From a virus, in the IMG/VR virus record IMGVR_UViG_3300024312_000003, positions 96,001 through 160,000 of that record: a DNA stretch of 64,000 nt; one strand, given 5' to 3'. The position numbers and the translations under genes were made by a program. Position 1 is the stretch's first letter. The number at the start of each line of letters is the position of its first letter. Below, in pieces: positions 1,837 through 37,036 of this stretch. The notes under the pieces were generated by a model. That model had not been told where the DNA came from. It did no database searches and saw only the letters and a list, made by a program, of their open reading frames with translations.

Positions 1837-4800
1837 TTATAACCAATATTCCCCGGAAGGATTATAAGTCCAATAATCAACTCTTGTCATTTCGTCAGAT
1901 CCTGAATTCATTGTAAAACCAGGGTGACCGCCGGACAGCGGAGTTGGATCAGTGTAAGTTGTAAACAGAACACCGTTTATATAAACCTCAAAGGTATCGT
2001 TAGCAGTAGGTACAACTTTAAGAATTGTATCGGCTGTTAAAGTATAAGGTATTGATGTTTGTTCAACCCAATTTCTGGTTATTCTTAAATTAGAAGAATT
2101 GAAGAAGAATCCATAAGCTTGAGTCATTGTTGCTCTGAGCACAGCACCAACTTCAAAATTGAATGTGGTTTGAAGCGGTTGTTTTATCCTCATTTCTACT
2201 TGGGACATCGGACCTGTTTCAGCATCTACAAACCAGCAGTATCCTCCGGCGTTTTTAGAAACATAACTGCCTCTAAGATATCCTTCTCCATCGCAATAGA
2301 AATAGTCTAAAGCTGGATAACTACCGAAGGCTAAAGAGCCAGCCCATCTAGAATCTAATGTTCTAACAGCAGTACCTGATGAAGCTGAGAAATTAAACTT
2401 TCTATAAGCGTCCGGATCAGCTGTGGCTGCCTTAACATAAACAGTTTCAGAGTACTCAGACCACGATTCTCCTATAGAGTTCGTCGCAGTAATTAAACAT
2501 CTTAGTCCAGCACCAACCATATCTAGCGTTGGGGTAGTCTCGTAAGTGTTTTGACCTATCAGTAAAGTATTACCAGCATACCACTGATAGGTGTAACCAA
2601 CAGGACTGTTCGTCCATGTACCAGTTGTTACTCTTACTGGGAATCCGGATTGTTTAGATCCAGATATTGTTGCCAAAGTAACAATTTGAGGAGTGGTAGC
2701 CGATACAATAACTATACCTGCTGATATGGCTGTAGTTAAGCCGGCATCGTTAACTGCTGTTTCTACGAAATAAACCTCATAACCTATATCGTCGTTGGTA
2801 CTAGTGTATGTATCGCTAGTTTCACCGACAATTAAAGAAGATATTCCGTTTAATTTTCGCATCCATTGAATTGTACTTGAATCAGCTTTAGGACTATATC
2901 TGGCCTTATTAGCTGTTAGTACATTTCCTATTACTCTGTTACCGGTGACATAAGCTTGCGAAATAGCTTTAGGGGGAGGCATCTCCATATAAGGATAATT
3001 GATGGGATCTCCTTGTGGAGTAAGTCCTCTTTCAGTTATCATTGGATGATACTGCGCGTTTAGATTGTAATAAACGCTTGTGGGTAGCAGACTTACATCA
3101 TCATCATCGTAAGATACAAAGCCGGGATCGACATCTTGATTAGTGATGTTTAGATCCACTAAAGATCCTTTATAAGAAATACCCTGTAGAACAGATATGC
3201 CATCTCTGTTTGCAGTAGCTGGATCATAAGCCGTAGGCACAACGTTTCTTGCAAAGTTCGTATCGCTAGCTTCTAATACCCCAGCGTACGCAAAGAAACC
3301 TAACTTGGGAAGTTTACCAGTTGGAGTTCTTTTACCAGAGTAAAGTATGTTATTCTTAGCATAGAACTTCATTGGTTCTCTGGTATTCCATGCGCTGAAT
3401 AATGAGGAATTAAAACTATCGTAATAAACGTTATTAAAGAAACCGGAAGATGAGTCGGCTCTTATTGCGACGACATTCTTATAAAAGAAAACAATGCCCC
3501 CGCCAGTTACTTGATTGTGCTCTGAATAGAACGGACCATCGCCGTGACCTATTACATTAGCAACATTGTCCATGAAGAATGTATTGCCGTAAATGTAAGG
3601 GAAATTAGCTAACTTAATTCCAAATACATCAGTAATAGTTAGAGCATCCACATACGTTGCTTGAGGCTCTCTTAAAGATATGCAGTTTTGTGGACCAGAG
3701 CGAATATGGTTGTATCTGAATATCTGACCAGTCGATCTATCTTTGATAGAGTCGCCTGCGTTACCGTTCTTATTTGCACCTATGTAGTTGAATTCATAAA
3801 TGGTGTTAGTTGATTCAGAATAACTATTGTGCGTACCGGTATCACCAACTTCACCATTATCATAGATGTAGTTAAAGAGTATATGTAAATTCTTTAGCTG
3901 AAATCTAGGACCGTTATTAGGATTAGAGTTAGCAAATATACCACAACTATTATCGTGAATTTCACAACCAGAAATGGTAATGTAATCCCCACCCATGACC
4001 TTAATGCCAGCGCTGAAATGACCCCAACGTGTTTGTTGGCCATACATGTTGATAAATTCATTATCCTTATAGGCGGCCGTAATCTTTAGTCCATGGATAT
4101 GGATGTATCCTGGCCGATAAGATGTACTAGCACCGATACCTAATGGTTGAATGATGTTAATTAAACCAGCCCCAGTGTGGGTATCGTTAAGTCTGGAATT
4201 AACCGGATCGTTTTCAGCTCCGATACCATTTAGTTCAGGTAATTGACCTTGTGGTCCTCTGACTCCAATGATTTCAATCCATCTGGTTATTTCACCCCTA
4301 ACATGTACTGGTAGTACGTGTCTGTAAGGTTGTGCTCTCCAATAAACAAATACTCTATCACCAGGTCTGAGGTTTAACCAAGGAACTTCGCTTAATTCAG
4401 CATATTCCATTCCTGGACCTACTCTGAAATCATAACTTGTTAAATCAACACCGATTCGGTTTGGAAGAACGTGATAGTACTTCCAATTTATGTCAGTTAT
4501 ATCGACTGCATTGAAAACAGGCTGATCTCTTAAATTAAAAGGATTAGGAGCTATCTGTCCTGGTGTAAATTCACCATTGCGATACTTCTTAAACCAAGTT
4601 ATGGTATCTTGTCTGGTTGGCACTGGTGGCAATATACTCATGATTAAGTTAGCGTTAGATTCACTAACTCCATCACTTATTCGATACGTCACCATTGGAA
4701 TAAGACCGTAATAACCATTGGTTGGACTTACAGACCAGGCGCCATTTGAATCTAATGAGAATAAACCGGCAGCTCCAAAATCAATAACATCCCCAGGCTG

Positions 4801-21309: not shown

Positions 21310-21580
21310 TTTTCAAATCCATTACAGATTTGATACTCATCAATTAAATCGGCAGGAATATCAGATTCAATAGGTTCGGATCATTATCACCTACTTGTTA
21401 TTAAACCTGATAACTAGGTTTTGCTCAAGCGGCCAGGCGCTGAGCAAACGTGCTGTCGTTTGCGGCAGTTAAATTGAGATTTGTATGTTTCGATTGATTT
21501 CTCAATCTCTAACGGAGTTCTCATACTTACTCCGAGTAGTAATCTCCACTAGCTCACCCTGTCGAAACCAGATCTGGCCC
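21310..21580 (-). ncRNA. ssrA: tmRNA coding piece of a permuted two-piece gene; tag (A)NDSTFAQRLAA at 21425-21463
   Basis: Begins GGGCCAGATCTGGTTTCGACAGGG; pk1 (CGGAG/CTCCG + GTATG/CATAC); TTAACTGCC-GCA AAC GAC AGC ACG TTT GCT CAG CGC CTG GCC GCT TGA; helix over the tag end; three further pseudoknot-like elements. The 3' boundary is approximate. Confidence 0.9.
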
Positions 21581-21611
21581 ACCTAAACAAACACAATATT
21601 GAATCTGCTTA

Positions 21612-21695
21612 GGTGGACCAGGTGGGAATCGAACCCACGTCCAGAATGCATTTGCTTTGATTTTCAGTTTCGGTATTTCTACCTCTACACACTAC
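21612..21695 (-). ncRNA. ssrA: tmRNA acceptor piece of the permuted gene
   Basis: TTCTGGACGTGGGTTCGATTCCCACCTGGTCCACC (T-arm plus acceptor 3' strand) lies upstream of the 5' end; CTGGTCC pairs with GGGCCAG including G3.U70. The 5' boundary is approximate. Confidence 0.9.
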
Positions 21696-21698
21696 CAT

Positions 21699-22196
21699 TT
21701 ATACTTCAGTCCAAGTTCTGCCATTTCTAATATCAGAAACAGTTGATTTGGATATGTTGTATTTATCAACATAGTAACTGTATGGTTCTTTTCCGTATTT
21801 GATGTTACTAACCTGCTCTATTGTCAAATGCGAATTATTTCTAACATTAATACCTTTAGCAGATCGACCTTTATTTACCATATCATCCATATTGTCTTGA
21901 TGAGTGCCTGCAAATAAATGATCAGGAGCAACACATTTACGATTATCACAATGATGACAAATCATAATACTGGGGTCAAGAATCTGACCACCAATAAATA
22001 ATTGAAAAGCCCATCTATGAGCGCGTATTTTAGACTGTTCCTCTCTAGATCCAACTGATATCTGACCGTATCCATCTTGATTGAGTTTACCTGTCCACTC
22101 TATACAATCATTATTTGGATTAAGTTGAAGTTTGTCTATAAAACGTTTTAAGACTTTTTCATCAAATACGATATCTGGATCTAGAGAATTTGACAT
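21699..22196 (-). CDS. HNH homing endonuclease
   Basis: CIEWTG...GYGQI...RAHRWAF...ICHHCDNRKCVAPDHLFAGTHQDNMDDMVNKGR; probable start MSNSLD. Confidence 0.9.
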   Translation of the reverse strand: MSNSLDPDIVFDEKVLKRFIDKLQLNPNNDCIEWTGKLNQDGYGQISVGSREEQSKIRAHRWAFQLFIGGQILDPSIMICHHCDNRKCVAPDHLFAGTHQDNMDDMVNKGRSAKGINVRNNSHLTIEQVSNIKYGKEPYSYYVDKYNISKSTVSDIRNGRTWTEV

Positions 22197-22204
22197 GATG
22201 CGTC

Positions 22205-22392
22205 CAAGAATTATTGTACGGAATTGTGCCACCCCCGTACGGGAGGCGCAAGGAGATCGAGGGTTTCTAACTCAATCATCGGCGCCCGCTAAAGAGTCCT
22301 TTCGAGACTCTACCTACCACGACTTTACGACCAACTGCAACATCGACGTAAACTTGTTGATTTCTCTCTACAACAAGTAGTGATGTTGTAAT
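22205..22392 (-). ncRNA. GC-rich structured RNA candidate upstream of the HNH gene
   Basis: Nested stems including GAGTCTC-GAAA-GGACTC, GTACGG/CCGTAC, GGCGC/GCGCC, CAACATC/GATGTTG. Confidence 0.55.
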
Positions 22393-32931: not shown

Positions 32932-33145
32932 AAGCTTTTAGATCAATTAGGCTTTCAAGAACACCCATTAATTCTTCATCTTTTGGTTTAGAATCAAGAA
33001 GAGATTCTAAACCAAGAATATGTTTTTTAATTTGATCTTTTATCTGCCACTCAGGAAACCCAGATTTTAGAAGACAAACGTATGGTGATAGACTTTGACG
33101 GGTTTGTAGATTGTCAATTTTTTTAATTTCTAACAGGAGGCTCAT
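32921..33145 (-). CDS. Small helical protein, paralogue of the previous gene
   Basis: MSLLLE...LLKSGFPEWQIKDQIKKHILGLE. Confidence 0.65.
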   Translation of the reverse strand: MSLLLEIKKIDNLQTRQSLSPYVCLLKSGFPEWQIKDQIKKHILGLESLLDSKPKDEELMGVLESLIDLKAYVS

Positions 33146-33758
33146 TGTCTTTCCTATTCTCTTCTTTTTCACGAATCAATCTACAGACAGTAGTTCTGAG
33201 TCCCGGATAACACTCATGAACACTACCCATCAGCTTAATTCGAGTTTTATTTCTCAATCCAGAATTTGGATCACTGTTACTGGGATCACTCAGATGCTCA
33301 AGATTTCTGTTCTGAGCATATTCGTAAATCTTTGATTTTGGAGTGCAAATCAGCGGGCGAATAACGTTGTTATTTTGATATTCCAGAATTTTAGGAGTAC
33401 CTTGGAAAGTACTCATGATGTACCATTCGACAGCATCATCAAGATGGTGACCTGTGAGTACCATCCTGTCCATGGCTTGAAAGATCTTGTATCTTTCACG
33501 ACTCCAATAAGCTTCCTTTGAACCCGGTCCTTTGAATGCTTCGATTTGTTTAACAAGCAATTCAATACCTAGTTCCTTAGAAAGATTTTCAGCAAACAAC
33601 TGTTCCTCATCGCAGAAATTGCCCCTGTGATGAATAAACAACAACTTAACGTCTACTTTTCTCTTTACTAGCAAATGAAGCAATACAGCAGAATCCACAC
33701 CTCCAGAGAAAGCCAGGTACACTGGTGTATTGATTCGCTTAAAGAAACTAATTTTCAT
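33123..33758 (-). CDS. tilS: tRNA(Ile)-lysidine synthetase-like PP-loop ATPase (catalytic domain only)
   Basis: LAFSGGVDSAVL, ERYKIF, LTGHHLDDAVE, IRPL, DPSN, RNKTR; about 211 aa, lacking the C-terminal domains of bacterial TilS. Confidence 0.85.
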   Translation of the reverse strand: MKISFFKRINTPVYLAFSGGVDSAVLLHLLVKRKVDVKLLFIHHRGNFCDEEQLFAENLSKELGIELLVKQIEAFKGPGSKEAYWSRERYKIFQAMDRMVLTGHHLDDAVEWYIMSTFQGTPKILEYQNNNVIRPLICTPKSKIYEYAQNRNLEHLSDPSNSDPNSGLRNKTRIKLMGSVHECYPGLRTTVCRLIREKEENRKDNEPPVRN

Positions 33759-34598: not shown

Positions 34599-35192
34599 TC
34601 ATTTAAAATATCCATCTGCCATTTTGGCAATTGAATCGATGTGCGGAATCCAAATAGCTCGAAGAACTGGATCTGTCCAAACATTGGCAGTCAAATTCTG
34701 AGCAAGGAATTCATTGCTTTGAGATGTAGTCTTTGTAATTTGACCAGCCGCAACACCAGCTACAAAAGAACCAATTGTAGCAAGATTACATTTTGCAGGA
34801 GTACCAACCAAAAGTACTGGATAATCTTTATCCTGACAATACCAAGCAGCGATACAGCCAGTGGAGTCCTTCATGAAAAATCCCTTACTACCAGTACCGC
34901 CAGGTACCTGTGAGGGATAACATGCGAGTACGTCTTTAACTTCCTTGCAAGATTTAGAAACTCCGGGATTCGGATCAGTTCCAAAAGTGGTATTGTTACA
35001 AATGTATGTGCCTGGAGTAAAATCTTTACTAACCCACTTTGAACCAGCGCCATAAGTTACTCTGGTATCTTTCAGAATGGTCATGGTTTTACCACCAGAC
35101 ACATTAACAACTTGAGTTTGTGCTTGGACTGAACCCAACATTAGAAATGTTGAAAAAACAAAAAATAAAAAGCTTTTCAAAGAATATTTCAT
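34599..35192 (-). CDS. Secreted hypothetical protein
   Basis: Signal peptide (..LMLGSVQA), Cys-containing module YGAGSKW..CNNTTFGTDPNPGVSKSC. Confidence 0.7.
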   Translation of the reverse strand: MKYSLKSFLFFVFSTFLMLGSVQAQTQVVNVSGGKTMTILKDTRVTYGAGSKWVSKDFTPGTYICNNTTFGTDPNPGVSKSCKEVKDVLACYPSQVPGGTGSKGFFMKDSTGCIAAWYCQDKDYPVLLVGTPAKCNLATIGSFVAGVAAGQITKTTSQSNEFLAQNLTANVWTDPVLRAIWIPHIDSIAKMADGYFK

Positions 35193-35206
35193 GATTTTCT
35201 CATTGG

Positions 35207-35280
35207 TGGAGCGGGCGACGGGGATCGAACCCGCGTCATTAGCTTGGAAGGCTAAGGTTCTACCATTGAACTACACCCGC
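35207..35280 (-). tRNA. tRNA-Gly(TCC)
   Basis: GCGGGTG/CGCCCGC acceptor, TTAGC-CTTCCAA-GCTAA anticodon arm, T73-CCA. Confidence 0.95.
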
Positions 35281-35313
35281 AGATTAAGAAGAAGTTCTTC
35301 TTAAGATATTGCT

Positions 35314-35523
35314 TTATTTGGAAGAAATACAAGAGTACGGATTAGCATATCCATCATTCTTTTCAGGATCATAAATCAACGTACCCTTTTGAGCAATGCA
35401 AGAATTGATTGTTGCTCGGAATTTGTATTGTGTCGAATTAAAATACAAAATAGACACAATTGAAAGAGCCAAAATAATGGCTGCGACATAAATAGAAATC
35501 GGAGTATCTTTATACGAACTCAT
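35314..35523 (-). CDS. Small membrane protein
   Basis: One TM segment plus a Cys pair. Confidence 0.6.
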   Translation of the reverse strand: MSSYKDTPISIYVAAIILALSIVSILYFNSTQYKFRATINSCIAQKGTLIYDPEKNDGYANPYSCISSK

Positions 35524-35548
35524 GATTTATAGTAATTTAGTGGATGGA

Positions 35549-35581
35549 TGGTGCCGGTTGACAGTCTCGAACTGCCGACCT
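35549..35581 (-). pseudogene. 3' half of a disrupted tRNA (Thr-like)
   Basis: AGGTC-GGCAG-TTCGAGA-CTGTC-AACCGGC-A-CCA; pairs with the 5' half at 36277-36300. Confidence 0.85.
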
Positions 35582-36152
35582 ATTCAATAATTATTGGTTT
35601 CACCCAATAACCCCTTGGCGGTTTTTCTATTGAATATATTTTACACCATTTTTCAATTGTCTTATCGGAAACACCATAATCCTTAGAAATATGGGTAGTG
35701 GGTTTCGACCAGACTAACTTCTCAAGAGTCTCTTTAGAAGGTCTATCTTTAACTATCCGTGCTCCAATTTTTGAACAGTTTGCTGAGCAATATTTAAATT
35801 CAGGATAAATAGGGTATTCGCAAACGATACACCGTATACACCCCAATTTAATTCTTTCAGAAAATTCTTTGTTTGGTTCAAAAGAATATTTATTCATCCA
35901 ACCATGCAGTTTAGCATGCATTGGATTTGAAAGAATCAACAAATTGTCAGGAGAATTATTTTGTCTATTTTGATCCAGATGATGAACTACTTCTCCTTCT
36001 AGAAGCGATCTTCCCATCAGATTCTCAGCAACAACAATATGTTCGTAAACATATCCTTCGTAAGATCCCGAAGCTATAGCTCTCGGATGATATGGCATCT
36101 TGACCAAAACATATCCGTTGGTATCAATTGTTCGTCTAAAAAGTTTGTACAT
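35580..36152 (-). CDS. HNH homing endonuclease
   Basis: GYV..EHIVVAENLMGRSLLEGEVVHHLDQNRQNNSPDNLLIL..HAKLH, zinc-ribbon CIVC..YCS and C-terminal HTH; probable start MYKLF. Confidence 0.9.
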   Translation of the reverse strand: MYKLFRRTIDTNGYVLVKMPYHPRAIASGSYEGYVYEHIVVAENLMGRSLLEGEVVHHLDQNRQNNSPDNLLILSNPMHAKLHGWMNKYSFEPNKEFSERIKLGCIRCIVCEYPIYPEFKYCSANCSKIGARIVKDRPSKETLEKLVWSKPTTHISKDYGVSDKTIEKWCKIYSIEKPPRGYWVKPIIIE

Positions 36153-36165
36153 GATTTTGATTGGA

Positions 36166-36240
36166 TGGTGCCCTGTCTGTGAATCGAACACAGATCGCCG
36201 CCTTACAAGGGCGGTGCTAAGACCTTCCAGCTAACAGGGC
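36166..36240 (-). tRNA. tRNA-Thr(TGT), divergent
   Basis: GCCCTGT/ACAGGGC acceptor, CCGCC-CTTGTAA-GGCGG anticodon arm, CTGTG-TTCGATT-CACAG T-arm, CCA; atypical D-loop. Confidence 0.85.
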
Positions 36241-36276
36241 ACTATGAAACAGAAACAAATACAGATTTAGAAAGAA

Positions 36277-36300
36277 CTCTACCAACTGAGCTAAACCGGC
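36277..36300 (-). pseudogene. 5' half of the disrupted tRNA (Thr-like)
   Basis: GCCGGTTTAGCTCAGTTGGTAGAG (acceptor 5' strand plus D-arm); the anticodon arm is absent. Confidence 0.85.
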
Positions 36301-36352
36301 GACTTAGATAACAAACCAAGAGTCAGGAGATATTTCTATCTCCTGACTGAAA

Positions 36353-36429
<77 letters not shown>

Positions 36430-36547
36430 GTTATCTACTAAACCATGGAAGCGTGTGCTTCTTTCCAAATCATAGATGATTGTGGTAAAAAAGTATTTGT
36501 TTTTCCATATCTATCAATATTGTAATATGGTTCTGAAATACTTTTGA

Positions 36548-37036
36548 TTACAACTCTGTTTTAAATCCGTACTTAACAATGGACTCAATCAGATATTGAC
36601 TTGAGTCTGGTTCAAAATACATGTTCTTTCTATCAAAGATTAAACACTGATTAGAACCTCTATCGTGAGCGACTAAATCTAGAAACAAAAATACATCCTC
36701 ACCATTTGAGGTAAGAATCCATTTCATGTCATCATGTTTATTTGTCTTGTCGCGAATGAGTCCAGTAATGGGTCTTTCTCTTAGTTTCCTACAGTAATTC
36801 TTATAAATTACCAAACTGACACAATGATTTTCAAGATAATCAGATGCCACCTGACCAGCATTGTTATAAATCTTGTTGTAAGATATACTGTTTGCGTTTA
36901 ACTTATTCCAAATATGATTAAACGCAACTCTGCTCATTTCTTTCAAAAGTGTTCTGACTGAGTCAGTTCTCTCGATGCTTCTTAGAAAAAGAAGATATTG
37001 TCGAAGCGTAACGTCTTGGTAATTTTGAACAATCAT
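36548..37036 (-). CDS. Hypothetical protein
   Basis: 162-aa ORF. Confidence 0.6.
   Translation of the reverse strand: MIVQNYQDVTLRQYLLFLRSIERTDSVRTLLKEMSRVAFNHIWNKLNANSISYNKIYNNAGQVASDYLENHCVSLVIYKNYCRKLRERPITGLIRDKTNKHDDMKWILTSNGEDVFLFLDLVAHDRGSNQCLIFDRKNMYFEPDSSQYLIESIVKYGFKTEL

Follow-up and report, generated by a model that had tools for sequence, protein, structure and literature searches.

A probable nuclease-and-replacement-tRNA cassette inside a broken tRNA-Thr(UGU) gene of a metagenomic phage

Homing endonucleases are known to enter useful genes inside introns or inteins, by settling in the gaps between genes, or by dividing a gene in such a way that its parts remain functional. The locus considered here lies in a stretch of 64,000 nucleotides (nt), referred to below as the window, which comprises bases 96001-160000 of the 180,490-base-pair (bp) IMG/VR record IMGVR_UViG_3300024312_000003. 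The record is estimated to be 65% complete, which at its present length points to a giant phage. In the window, the two ends of a tRNA-Thr(UGU) gene enclose an HNH endonuclease gene together with a second, intact tRNA-Thr(UGU). In our opinion, this is probably a free-standing HNH homing-endonuclease cassette that invaded the phage's own tRNA-Thr(UGU), breaking its target gene and supplying a resistant copy. If true, the resistant replacement of a destroyed gene would constitute a fourth natural route into useful genes, following the same logic as engineered cleave-and-rescue drives.

Synthetic cleave-and-rescue and home-and-rescue drives are engineered with Cas9 in insects, where a recoded, resistant copy rescues the carriers. 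The window locus resembles cleave-and-rescue drives in that the resident copy is destroyed and a presumably resistant copy is linked to the nuclease; unlike them, it would be a natural, protein-guided phage element with a putative drive. The cyanobacterial tRNA-fMet intron with I-Ssp6803I is an example of an endonuclease-bearing group I intron in an anticodon loop. As in tRNA group I introns, a selfish nuclease is found at the middle of a tRNA gene, and relatives of the window HNH protein reside in such introns (L003 and L174; loci used for comparison bear L numbers). In contrast to these introns, the window locus has no ribozyme, its exons are incomplete (tRNA positions 25-43 are missing), and function would be restored by a second gene. 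MobE of Aeromonas phage Aeh1 is reportedly encoded by a free-standing HNH gene inserted in nrdA, the two pieces of which still give a working protein. The window HNH gene likewise stands in a useful gene with no intron, but the pieces of its host gene are dead and a replacement is supplied. I-HmuI of Bacillus phage SPO1, an extended, modular HNH enzyme in which a helix-turn-helix forms the C-terminus, is the solved structure that best matches the predicted fold of the window HNH. Unlike the latter, it is intron-encoded, in a DNA polymerase gene, and the two proteins have no detectable sequence match.

Free-standing homing endonucleases are also found in phage tRNA clusters, namely SegB of T4, a GIY-YIG enzyme, and the HNH enzymes F-TflI/II/IV of T5 (PMC2330249; PMC13096335). 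SegB cuts the tRNA-Asn gene of T2L, recognises a T-psi-C stem-loop motif, and replaces the tRNA region of the recipient by gene conversion (PMC2330249). Like SegB and the T5 enzymes, the window HNH is intron-free and encoded in a phage tRNA cluster. SegB, by contrast, is of a different nuclease family and is encoded between genes; the window HNH gene sits inside the end pieces of its presumed target, accompanied by an isoacceptor copy, neither of which is described for SegB. No published description of a broken tRNA enclosing a nuclease and a replacement tRNA was found; the literature that was found concerns SegB, the T5 enzymes, and tRNA introns of huge phages.

The arrangement was read directly on the minus strand, in the order tRNA-Met(CAU), hairpin, 5' piece of the broken (outer) tRNA-Thr, spacer, inner tRNA-Thr, HNH open reading frame (ORF), and 3' piece of the outer tRNA-Thr. 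The parts of the broken gene and its contents are:

36300-36277, minus strand: outer 5' piece of the broken tRNA-Thr(UGU), 24 nt, comprising the acceptor strand GCCGGTT, U8, A9, and the D-arm to position 24
36241-36276, minus strand: AT-rich spacer of 36 nt from the outer 5' piece to the inner tRNA, with no tRNA or ribozyme signal (Rfam, to E 10)
36240-36166, minus strand: inner, intact tRNA-Thr(UGU), called by ARAGORN; Rfam tRNA, 58.5 bits, E 1.2e-11
ATG 36152 to TAG 35582-35580, minus strand: HNH_3 homing-endonuclease gene, 190 amino acids (aa); Pfam HNH_3, E 1.2e-9
35581-35549, minus strand: outer 3' piece of the broken tRNA-Thr(UGU), 33 nt, comprising AGGTC, the T-arm GGCAG/TTCGAGA/CTGTC, AACCGGC, and ACCA

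The two outer pieces lie 695 nt apart, their acceptor strands pair at 7/7 positions, and tRNA positions 25-43 (the anticodon arm) are missing from both. Between them, 13 nt separate the inner tRNA from the ATG of the HNH gene, whose TAG stop overlaps AGGTC, the variable loop, of the outer 3' piece. Allowing up to 3 mismatches, neither outer piece has a second occurrence in the window or elsewhere in the 180 kb record, and shuffled sequences give an expectation of 0. A preliminary description, made from the sequence alone, had reported two complementary tRNA-Thr halves about 695 nt apart with the anticodon arm gone, enclosing an intact, sequence-divergent tRNA-Thr(TGT) and an HNH gene whose TAG overlaps AGGTC. 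The minus-strand reading and the 7/7 pairing bear this out, ARAGORN and Rfam agree on the identity of the inner tRNA, the HNH gene is complete with all family-invariant residues, and all the sequence statements of that description are correct. Two other interpretations of this anatomy were rejected. A split or permuted functional tRNA of the archaeal or algal type is incompatible with an anticodon arm that is present in neither piece, and with relatives that lack different amounts of the tRNA. An integrase-borne island in a tRNA gene does not fit an insert consisting only of a tRNA and an HNH gene, with neither piece repeated.

The exact 24-nt 5' piece occurs at at least 118 loci in viral contigs, nearly all of them complete tRNA-Thr(UGU) genes, and most of these loci end in AACCGGCACCA or AATCGGCACCA. 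Since the loci are nearly all normal tRNA-Thr(UGU) genes, the outer gene was once a canonical tRNA-Thr(UGU) of the host-like kind, and its anticodon was that of the inner one. Exact-pattern scans of viral contigs for the whole old tRNA or for the 3' piece returned nothing, the 5' half alone being widespread. The intact tRNA-Thr of L138, the closest relative found, is identical to the outer 5' piece at 23/24 positions and to the outer 3' piece at 28/33, and acceptor pair 6-67 shows a compensatory change (A-T in L138 against T-A in the window pieces). The loci sharing the 24-mer, together with the likeness to L138, thus support the view that the two outer pieces are the ends of one former tRNA-Thr(UGU), as had been supposed in the preliminary description. 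The latter had also called the invaded gene essential; a phage tRNA is probably advantageous rather than essential.

The source of the record is a metagenome assembly, and tRNA genes are repeats prone to mis-joining; an assembly chimera, or halves derived from two different tRNA genes, therefore had to be considered, and we regard the likelihood of either as practically negligible. Sequencing runs from 13 studies, representing river, wastewater, and groundwater samples, contain all or part of the stretch. An 866-nt contig (X3) from a wastewater run of another study covers positions 35546-36411 with 1 difference, and an 833-nt contig (X6) from a 2024 river run covers 35579-36411 with 7 differences. 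Because these two independent assemblies from other studies both cross the whole arrangement, spanning all junctions, the assembly artefact raised in the preliminary description is excluded. An origin of the halves from two genes is opposed by the 7/7 pairing and by the match to the single intact tRNA-Thr of L138, compensatory pair included. It should be noted that "joints" with 18-21 letters between the two pieces were tried as empty sites and rejected: they are tRNA genes of other organisms recruited at 85% likeness, and the two that were decoded have the anticodon UAC (Val). A 258-nt contig from an RNA library (X15, depth 3) covers 36020-36277, from the spacer through the inner tRNA into the beginning of the HNH gene; with this depth, and as DNA carry-over is possible, it is not counted as evidence of transcription.

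The same-site intact allele is found in L138, in which the HNH protein is 63% identical to that of the window and the neighbouring small genes also match. The features flanking the cassette in the window are:

36353-36429, minus strand: tRNA-Met(CAU), on the upstream side; L138 has the same tRNA immediately before its intact tRNA-Thr
36321-36348, minus strand: hairpin of 12 bp, terminator-like, separating tRNA-Met from the outer 5' piece
35207-35280, minus strand: tRNA-Gly(UCC), intact in the window; in L138 the homologous gene is the one that the HNH has broken

The cassette thus lies between tRNA-Met and tRNA-Gly, in a window with 8 tRNA genes and a tmRNA gene (9 tRNA genes in the whole record). 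In L138, tRNA-Met(CAU) is followed after 16 nt by the intact tRNA-Thr(UGU), at the place syntenic with the cassette. The HNH gene of L138 sits instead between the 5' and 3' pieces of tRNA-Gly(UCC), the gene that is unbroken in the window. The two loci are therefore reciprocal: each retains unbroken, with gene order conserved, a tRNA lost to the nuclease in the other. A relative with an intact tRNA-Thr, which the preliminary reading presupposes, is accordingly present, with the allele at the same place. Among the neighbouring genes, a 211-aa TilS-like protein (window 33123-33758, minus strand), encoded a few genes from the tRNA(CAU) at 36353-36429 (minus strand), is 79% identical to its counterpart in L138 and about 51% identical to those in L136 and L152. 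A precomputed ATP_bind_3 (TilS-like) match is recorded for the counterparts in L136 and L138. The flanking proteins of 162 and 197 aa have no relatives in viral contigs.

The HNH protein is recognised by Pfam as HNH_3 (38.1 bits against a cut-off of 24.8, E 1.2e-9) and matches PHROG 15471 (E 3.5e-34). Its catalytic domain is therefore HNH_3, not GIY-YIG. Among its 124 homologues, several of which are on contigs of 190-270 kb, the nearest are 55-63% identical. In an alignment of 38 sequences, the window protein retains 22/22 family-invariant columns, among them four cysteines and the HH..N..H core; H57, H58, N70, H79, and H83 are among the residues invariant in these 38 homologues. The protein is built of modules, namely N-terminal beta strands, the HNH core, a Cys4 zinc knuckle, and a C-terminal helix-turn-helix-like module. 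Its AlphaFold2 model has a predicted local distance difference test score (pLDDT) of 91. The top fold match in the PDB is I-HmuI (1u3e, probability 0.99), the overall similarity being weak (E 0.035, template modelling score 0.32), and the C-terminus of the model weakly matches helix-turn-helix domains; a sequence search of the PDB gave no detectable match to any chain. With its full length, its invariant residues, and an I-HmuI-like predicted fold, the nuclease looks active. A blastn search of the locus against deposited phages returned only single tRNAs and a short stretch of the HNH gene.

The C-terminal 59 aa of the HNH (window 35580-35758, minus strand) share 71% identity with the tail of a cyanobacterial PD-(D/E)XK endonuclease (PF11645; P0112; L225:1051-1848), the gene of which lies 78 nt after a tRNA gene; the NCBI name of this relative is "group I intron-associated". 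The common tail means that two nuclease cores, both located at tRNA genes, carry one DNA-binding module, and this module has apparently been exchanged between the two nuclease classes. The family comprises compact, modular nucleases with a tail in common with another nuclease class; their presumed targets, conserved tRNA genes, would be predictable from flanking remnants. The same C-terminal tail is found on 252-aa proteins beside tRNA-Glu in L010-L016. Pfam finds no domain in the tail-sharing protein of L010, nor in a second nuclease-like ORF of L136.

The inner tRNA is the sole tRNA-Thr that ARAGORN finds in the 180 kb record. It has G1-C72, C2-G71, and the anticodon bases G35 and U36, which are the identity elements for threonyl-tRNA synthetase in E. 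coli. Its anticodon loop is CUUGUAA; a reading as tRNA-Tyr(GUA) was rejected, as the loop C-U-U-G-U-A-A gives the anticodon UGU. The inner and outer tRNAs have only the general tRNA frame in common. Thus, the variable loop of the inner tRNA is the 4-nt CGAT versus AGGTC in the outer gene, and its D-loop is odd, with G at position 14 and U at position 21 in the Rfam alignment; A14 and A21 are near-universal in tRNAs. At the 11 loci that have the acceptor of the inner tRNA, neither its D-loop nor an HNH homologue was found.

The nested design recurs in the HNH family. In L143 and L140, outer remnants surround a tRNA-Thr(UGU) and an HNH gene, with only the 3' remnant located in L140; in L002, the order within the outer remnants is HNH and then tRNA-Thr(UGU). 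In L155, L156, L157, and L165, the remnants surround a tRNA(CAU) and an HNH gene, and in L155 the outer anticodon loop, also CAU, is still readable. In L136, the HNH of which is 59% identical to that of the window, tRNA-Thr is broken by the HNH alone, the 5' piece extending to U34 and the 3' piece starting from the variable loop. The outer T-stems of L136 and the window show compensatory differences, which indicates that the pieces were working tRNAs until recently and speaks for separate, recent invasions. In a maximum-likelihood tree, the window HNH groups with the Gly case and the Thr cases in a clade of 15 members (support 93/95); the nested CAU cases and the intron-borne cases fall outside it. 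Nested cases occur in at least three clades, and this spread marks the design as recurrent. The same kind of arrangement was found in other phages, in the form of broken tRNAs around a spare tRNA and an HNH in several clades of the family.

A second nested locus is present in L136 (1344-2320), where old tRNA-Leu end pieces surround an HNH-like ORF (1374-1871) and an intact tRNA-Leu(UAA); the latter carries a group I intron (1911-2159, Rfam 62 bits). Directly after the broken tRNA-Thr of L136, a tRNA-like gene with a CAU loop (3120-3193) scores 47.5 bits with Rfam and is uncalled by ARAGORN.

Of the 53 unique full-length loci of the family, 19 have an enclosing 7-bp pair of the acceptor type, and a control on the reversed strand gave 6, in a survey that detects only remnants with intact acceptor pairing; about 11 of the 19 are plainly tRNA end pieces. 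These figures bear on the explanation that the HNH is a passenger, i.e., that tRNA-Thr was broken by illegitimate recombination among similar tRNAs of the cluster and that the target of the nuclease lies elsewhere. Such clusters are prone to recombination, and SegB-driven rearrangements of tRNA regions are documented (PMC13096335). A passenger would nonetheless leave unaccounted for the enclosure of this particular family by tRNA ends in many unrelated phages, at different tRNAs and above the control rate, as well as the reciprocal state of the window and L138, the intron-borne relatives in tRNA genes, and the DNA-binding tail in common with an endonuclease encoded beside a tRNA gene. We therefore consider this explanation highly improbable.

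The intron-borne relatives raise another question of origin. In L003-L006 and L174, the HNH gene is carried by a true group I intron (Rfam 76 bits in L174) that interrupts the anticodon loop of a tRNA(CAU), the anticodon arm of which is complete. The window locus might thus be a decayed mobile intron that lost its ribozyme together with adjoining exon bases, thereby killing the tRNA, and acquired a second tRNA-Thr later, so that the present form never homed. This would agree with the roughly 40% identity to the homologues in true tRNA(CAU) introns (L003, L174), with group-I-like sequence inside the cassettes of L156, L157, and L140, between the outer 5' piece and the inner tRNA, and with the 5' piece of L136, which extends to U34 and is thus broken in the anticodon loop, the usual intron site. 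On the other hand, positions 35000-36700 of the window give no Intron_gpI match to E 10, versus 62-82 bits in relatives, and a ribozyme would have no room, as the ORF extends into the 3' piece and only 36 + 13 nt of non-coding sequence are left. Several separate events would be needed (loss of the core, loss of positions 25-43, and insertion of a tRNA exactly inside), and the presence of an inner tRNA inside a broken gene in several clades, with the same anticodon where the outer one is readable, would be left unexplained. Decay of an intron is, in our opinion, unlikely to account for the present locus. It speaks to where the locus came from more than to how it works now, can in part be combined with the cassette reading, and is a plausible origin for some lineages. 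Introns are also found in other tRNA genes of these loci: small (about 210 nt) and larger group I introns occur in L010-L016 (about 2035-2312), L165 (915-1182), and L143 (686-1140), with Rfam scores of 75-82 bits, and their host tRNAs are uncalled by ARAGORN.

Across the broken loci, the outer 5' piece ends between tRNA positions 11 and 38 and the 3' piece starts between positions 44 and 66; positions 39-43 are within the missing part of every broken outer tRNA. In most of them, the HNH gene stops right against the variable loop or T-stem of the outer tRNA. This last feature could be taken to mean that the end pieces are kept for a job, with acceptor pairing and the T-arm forming a tRNA-like clamp, processed by RNase P/RNase Z or tagged with CCA, that sets the ends, stability, or translation of the HNH mRNA. 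The acceptor pairing is indeed perfect despite very different inner deletions, the 3' piece of L143 consists of the acceptor 3' strand and ACCA only, and the outer pieces are well preserved between phages whose proteins are about 50-60% identical. However, the survey was limited to cases with intact pairing, the extents of the pieces vary as widely as given above, the 5' piece is closely preceded by a terminator-like hairpin, the clamp would be severed when the inner tRNA is processed, and many family members have no enclosing pieces. A retained function of this kind is therefore very unlikely.

Abnormal tRNAs near the HNH genes point to the same region of the molecule. Variable arms of 13-16 nt are found in 8/39 tRNAs of class I identity adjacent to an HNH gene versus 3/74 non-adjacent ones (Fisher p 0.008, with counts that are not phylogenetically independent). 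The long-armed tRNAs are located at L002:3583-3667, L140:1288-1377, L143:2407-2494, L155:826-913, L141:2405-2489 and 3093-3174, and in L154, L177, and L142; their anticodons belong to identities that are normally short-armed (Thr UGU, Met/Ile CAU, Asn GUU, Ile UAU, Lys UUU, and Cys GCA). Because the breaks and the abnormal arms fall in the same region, the proposed site of recognition or cleavage is the 3' strand of the anticodon stem together with the variable loop. We propose, from these comparisons, that deletion of this site would protect the carrier, and that altered variable regions would protect spare tRNAs. A broader and more tentative possibility, which we regard as somewhat doubtful, is that the whole HNH family acts as a natural "home-and-rescue" drive on tRNA genes, directed to this site, and that its pressure generates and spreads aberrant phage tRNAs, i.e., those with 13-16 nt arms in class I identities, short variable loops, or odd D-loops. 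If this were true, nuclease conflict, and not translation, would shape the tRNA architecture of giant phages.

For the window cassette itself, the following course of events would be expected. During co-infection, the HNH would cut or nick the intact, canonical tRNA-Thr(UGU) of a cassette-less relative, probably around the 3' strand of the anticodon stem and the variable loop. Recombinational repair would then copy the cassette from the donor, with the retained tRNA end pieces and the neighbouring genes serving as homology. The recipient tRNA would be converted into two dead end pieces that have no recognition region, so that the new carrier would not be cut again. Decoding of ACA would be restored by the tRNA-Thr(UGU) of the cassette, presumed to be resistant since it differs exactly at the break (the 4-nt variable loop, and also the odd D-loop).

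Several points weigh against this account. Cleavage specificity, immunity of the inner tRNA, homing, and the function of the inner tRNA are deduced by us from comparison, and the function of the inner tRNA is not certain, because A14 and A21 are replaced. L136 and L138 have no spare tRNA in the sequence examined, and in L002 the order is HNH-tRNA; the spare tRNA is therefore not a fixed part of the element and may be a secondary addition. The inner and outer identities are securely the same only in the window, in L155, and at the tRNA-Leu locus of L136. The GCCCCCG/CGGGGGC acceptor is mostly that of Arg and sometimes that of Thr, and the outer identity of L002, L140, and L156 is not assignable. 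As the survey requires intact acceptor pairing, it is biased toward fresh-looking cases. The nearest HNH is only 63% identical, too distant for joint movement of the tRNA and the HNH to be followed, and no insert-free variant of this phage was found in the sequencing runs examined. With regard to the nuclease-plus-rescue element of the preliminary description, then, its anatomy and evolutionary reading stand; the activity of the cassette is conjectural, and the rescuing copy is not general, being absent from the sequence examined of L136 and L138.

If true, the cassette reading would help to explain the tRNA fragments, nuclease genes, and oddly shaped tRNAs that litter the tRNA clusters of giant phages. 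It would also help to explain split or "nested" calls by tRNA finders, and the exchange of tRNA repertoires between phages.

The window contains a second HNH gene, unrelated to that of the cassette (21699-22232, minus strand; PHROG 59, E 3.8e-30). It ends 4 nt inside the tmRNA gene (21334-21703, minus strand), which according to ARAGORN is of the permuted, two-piece type.

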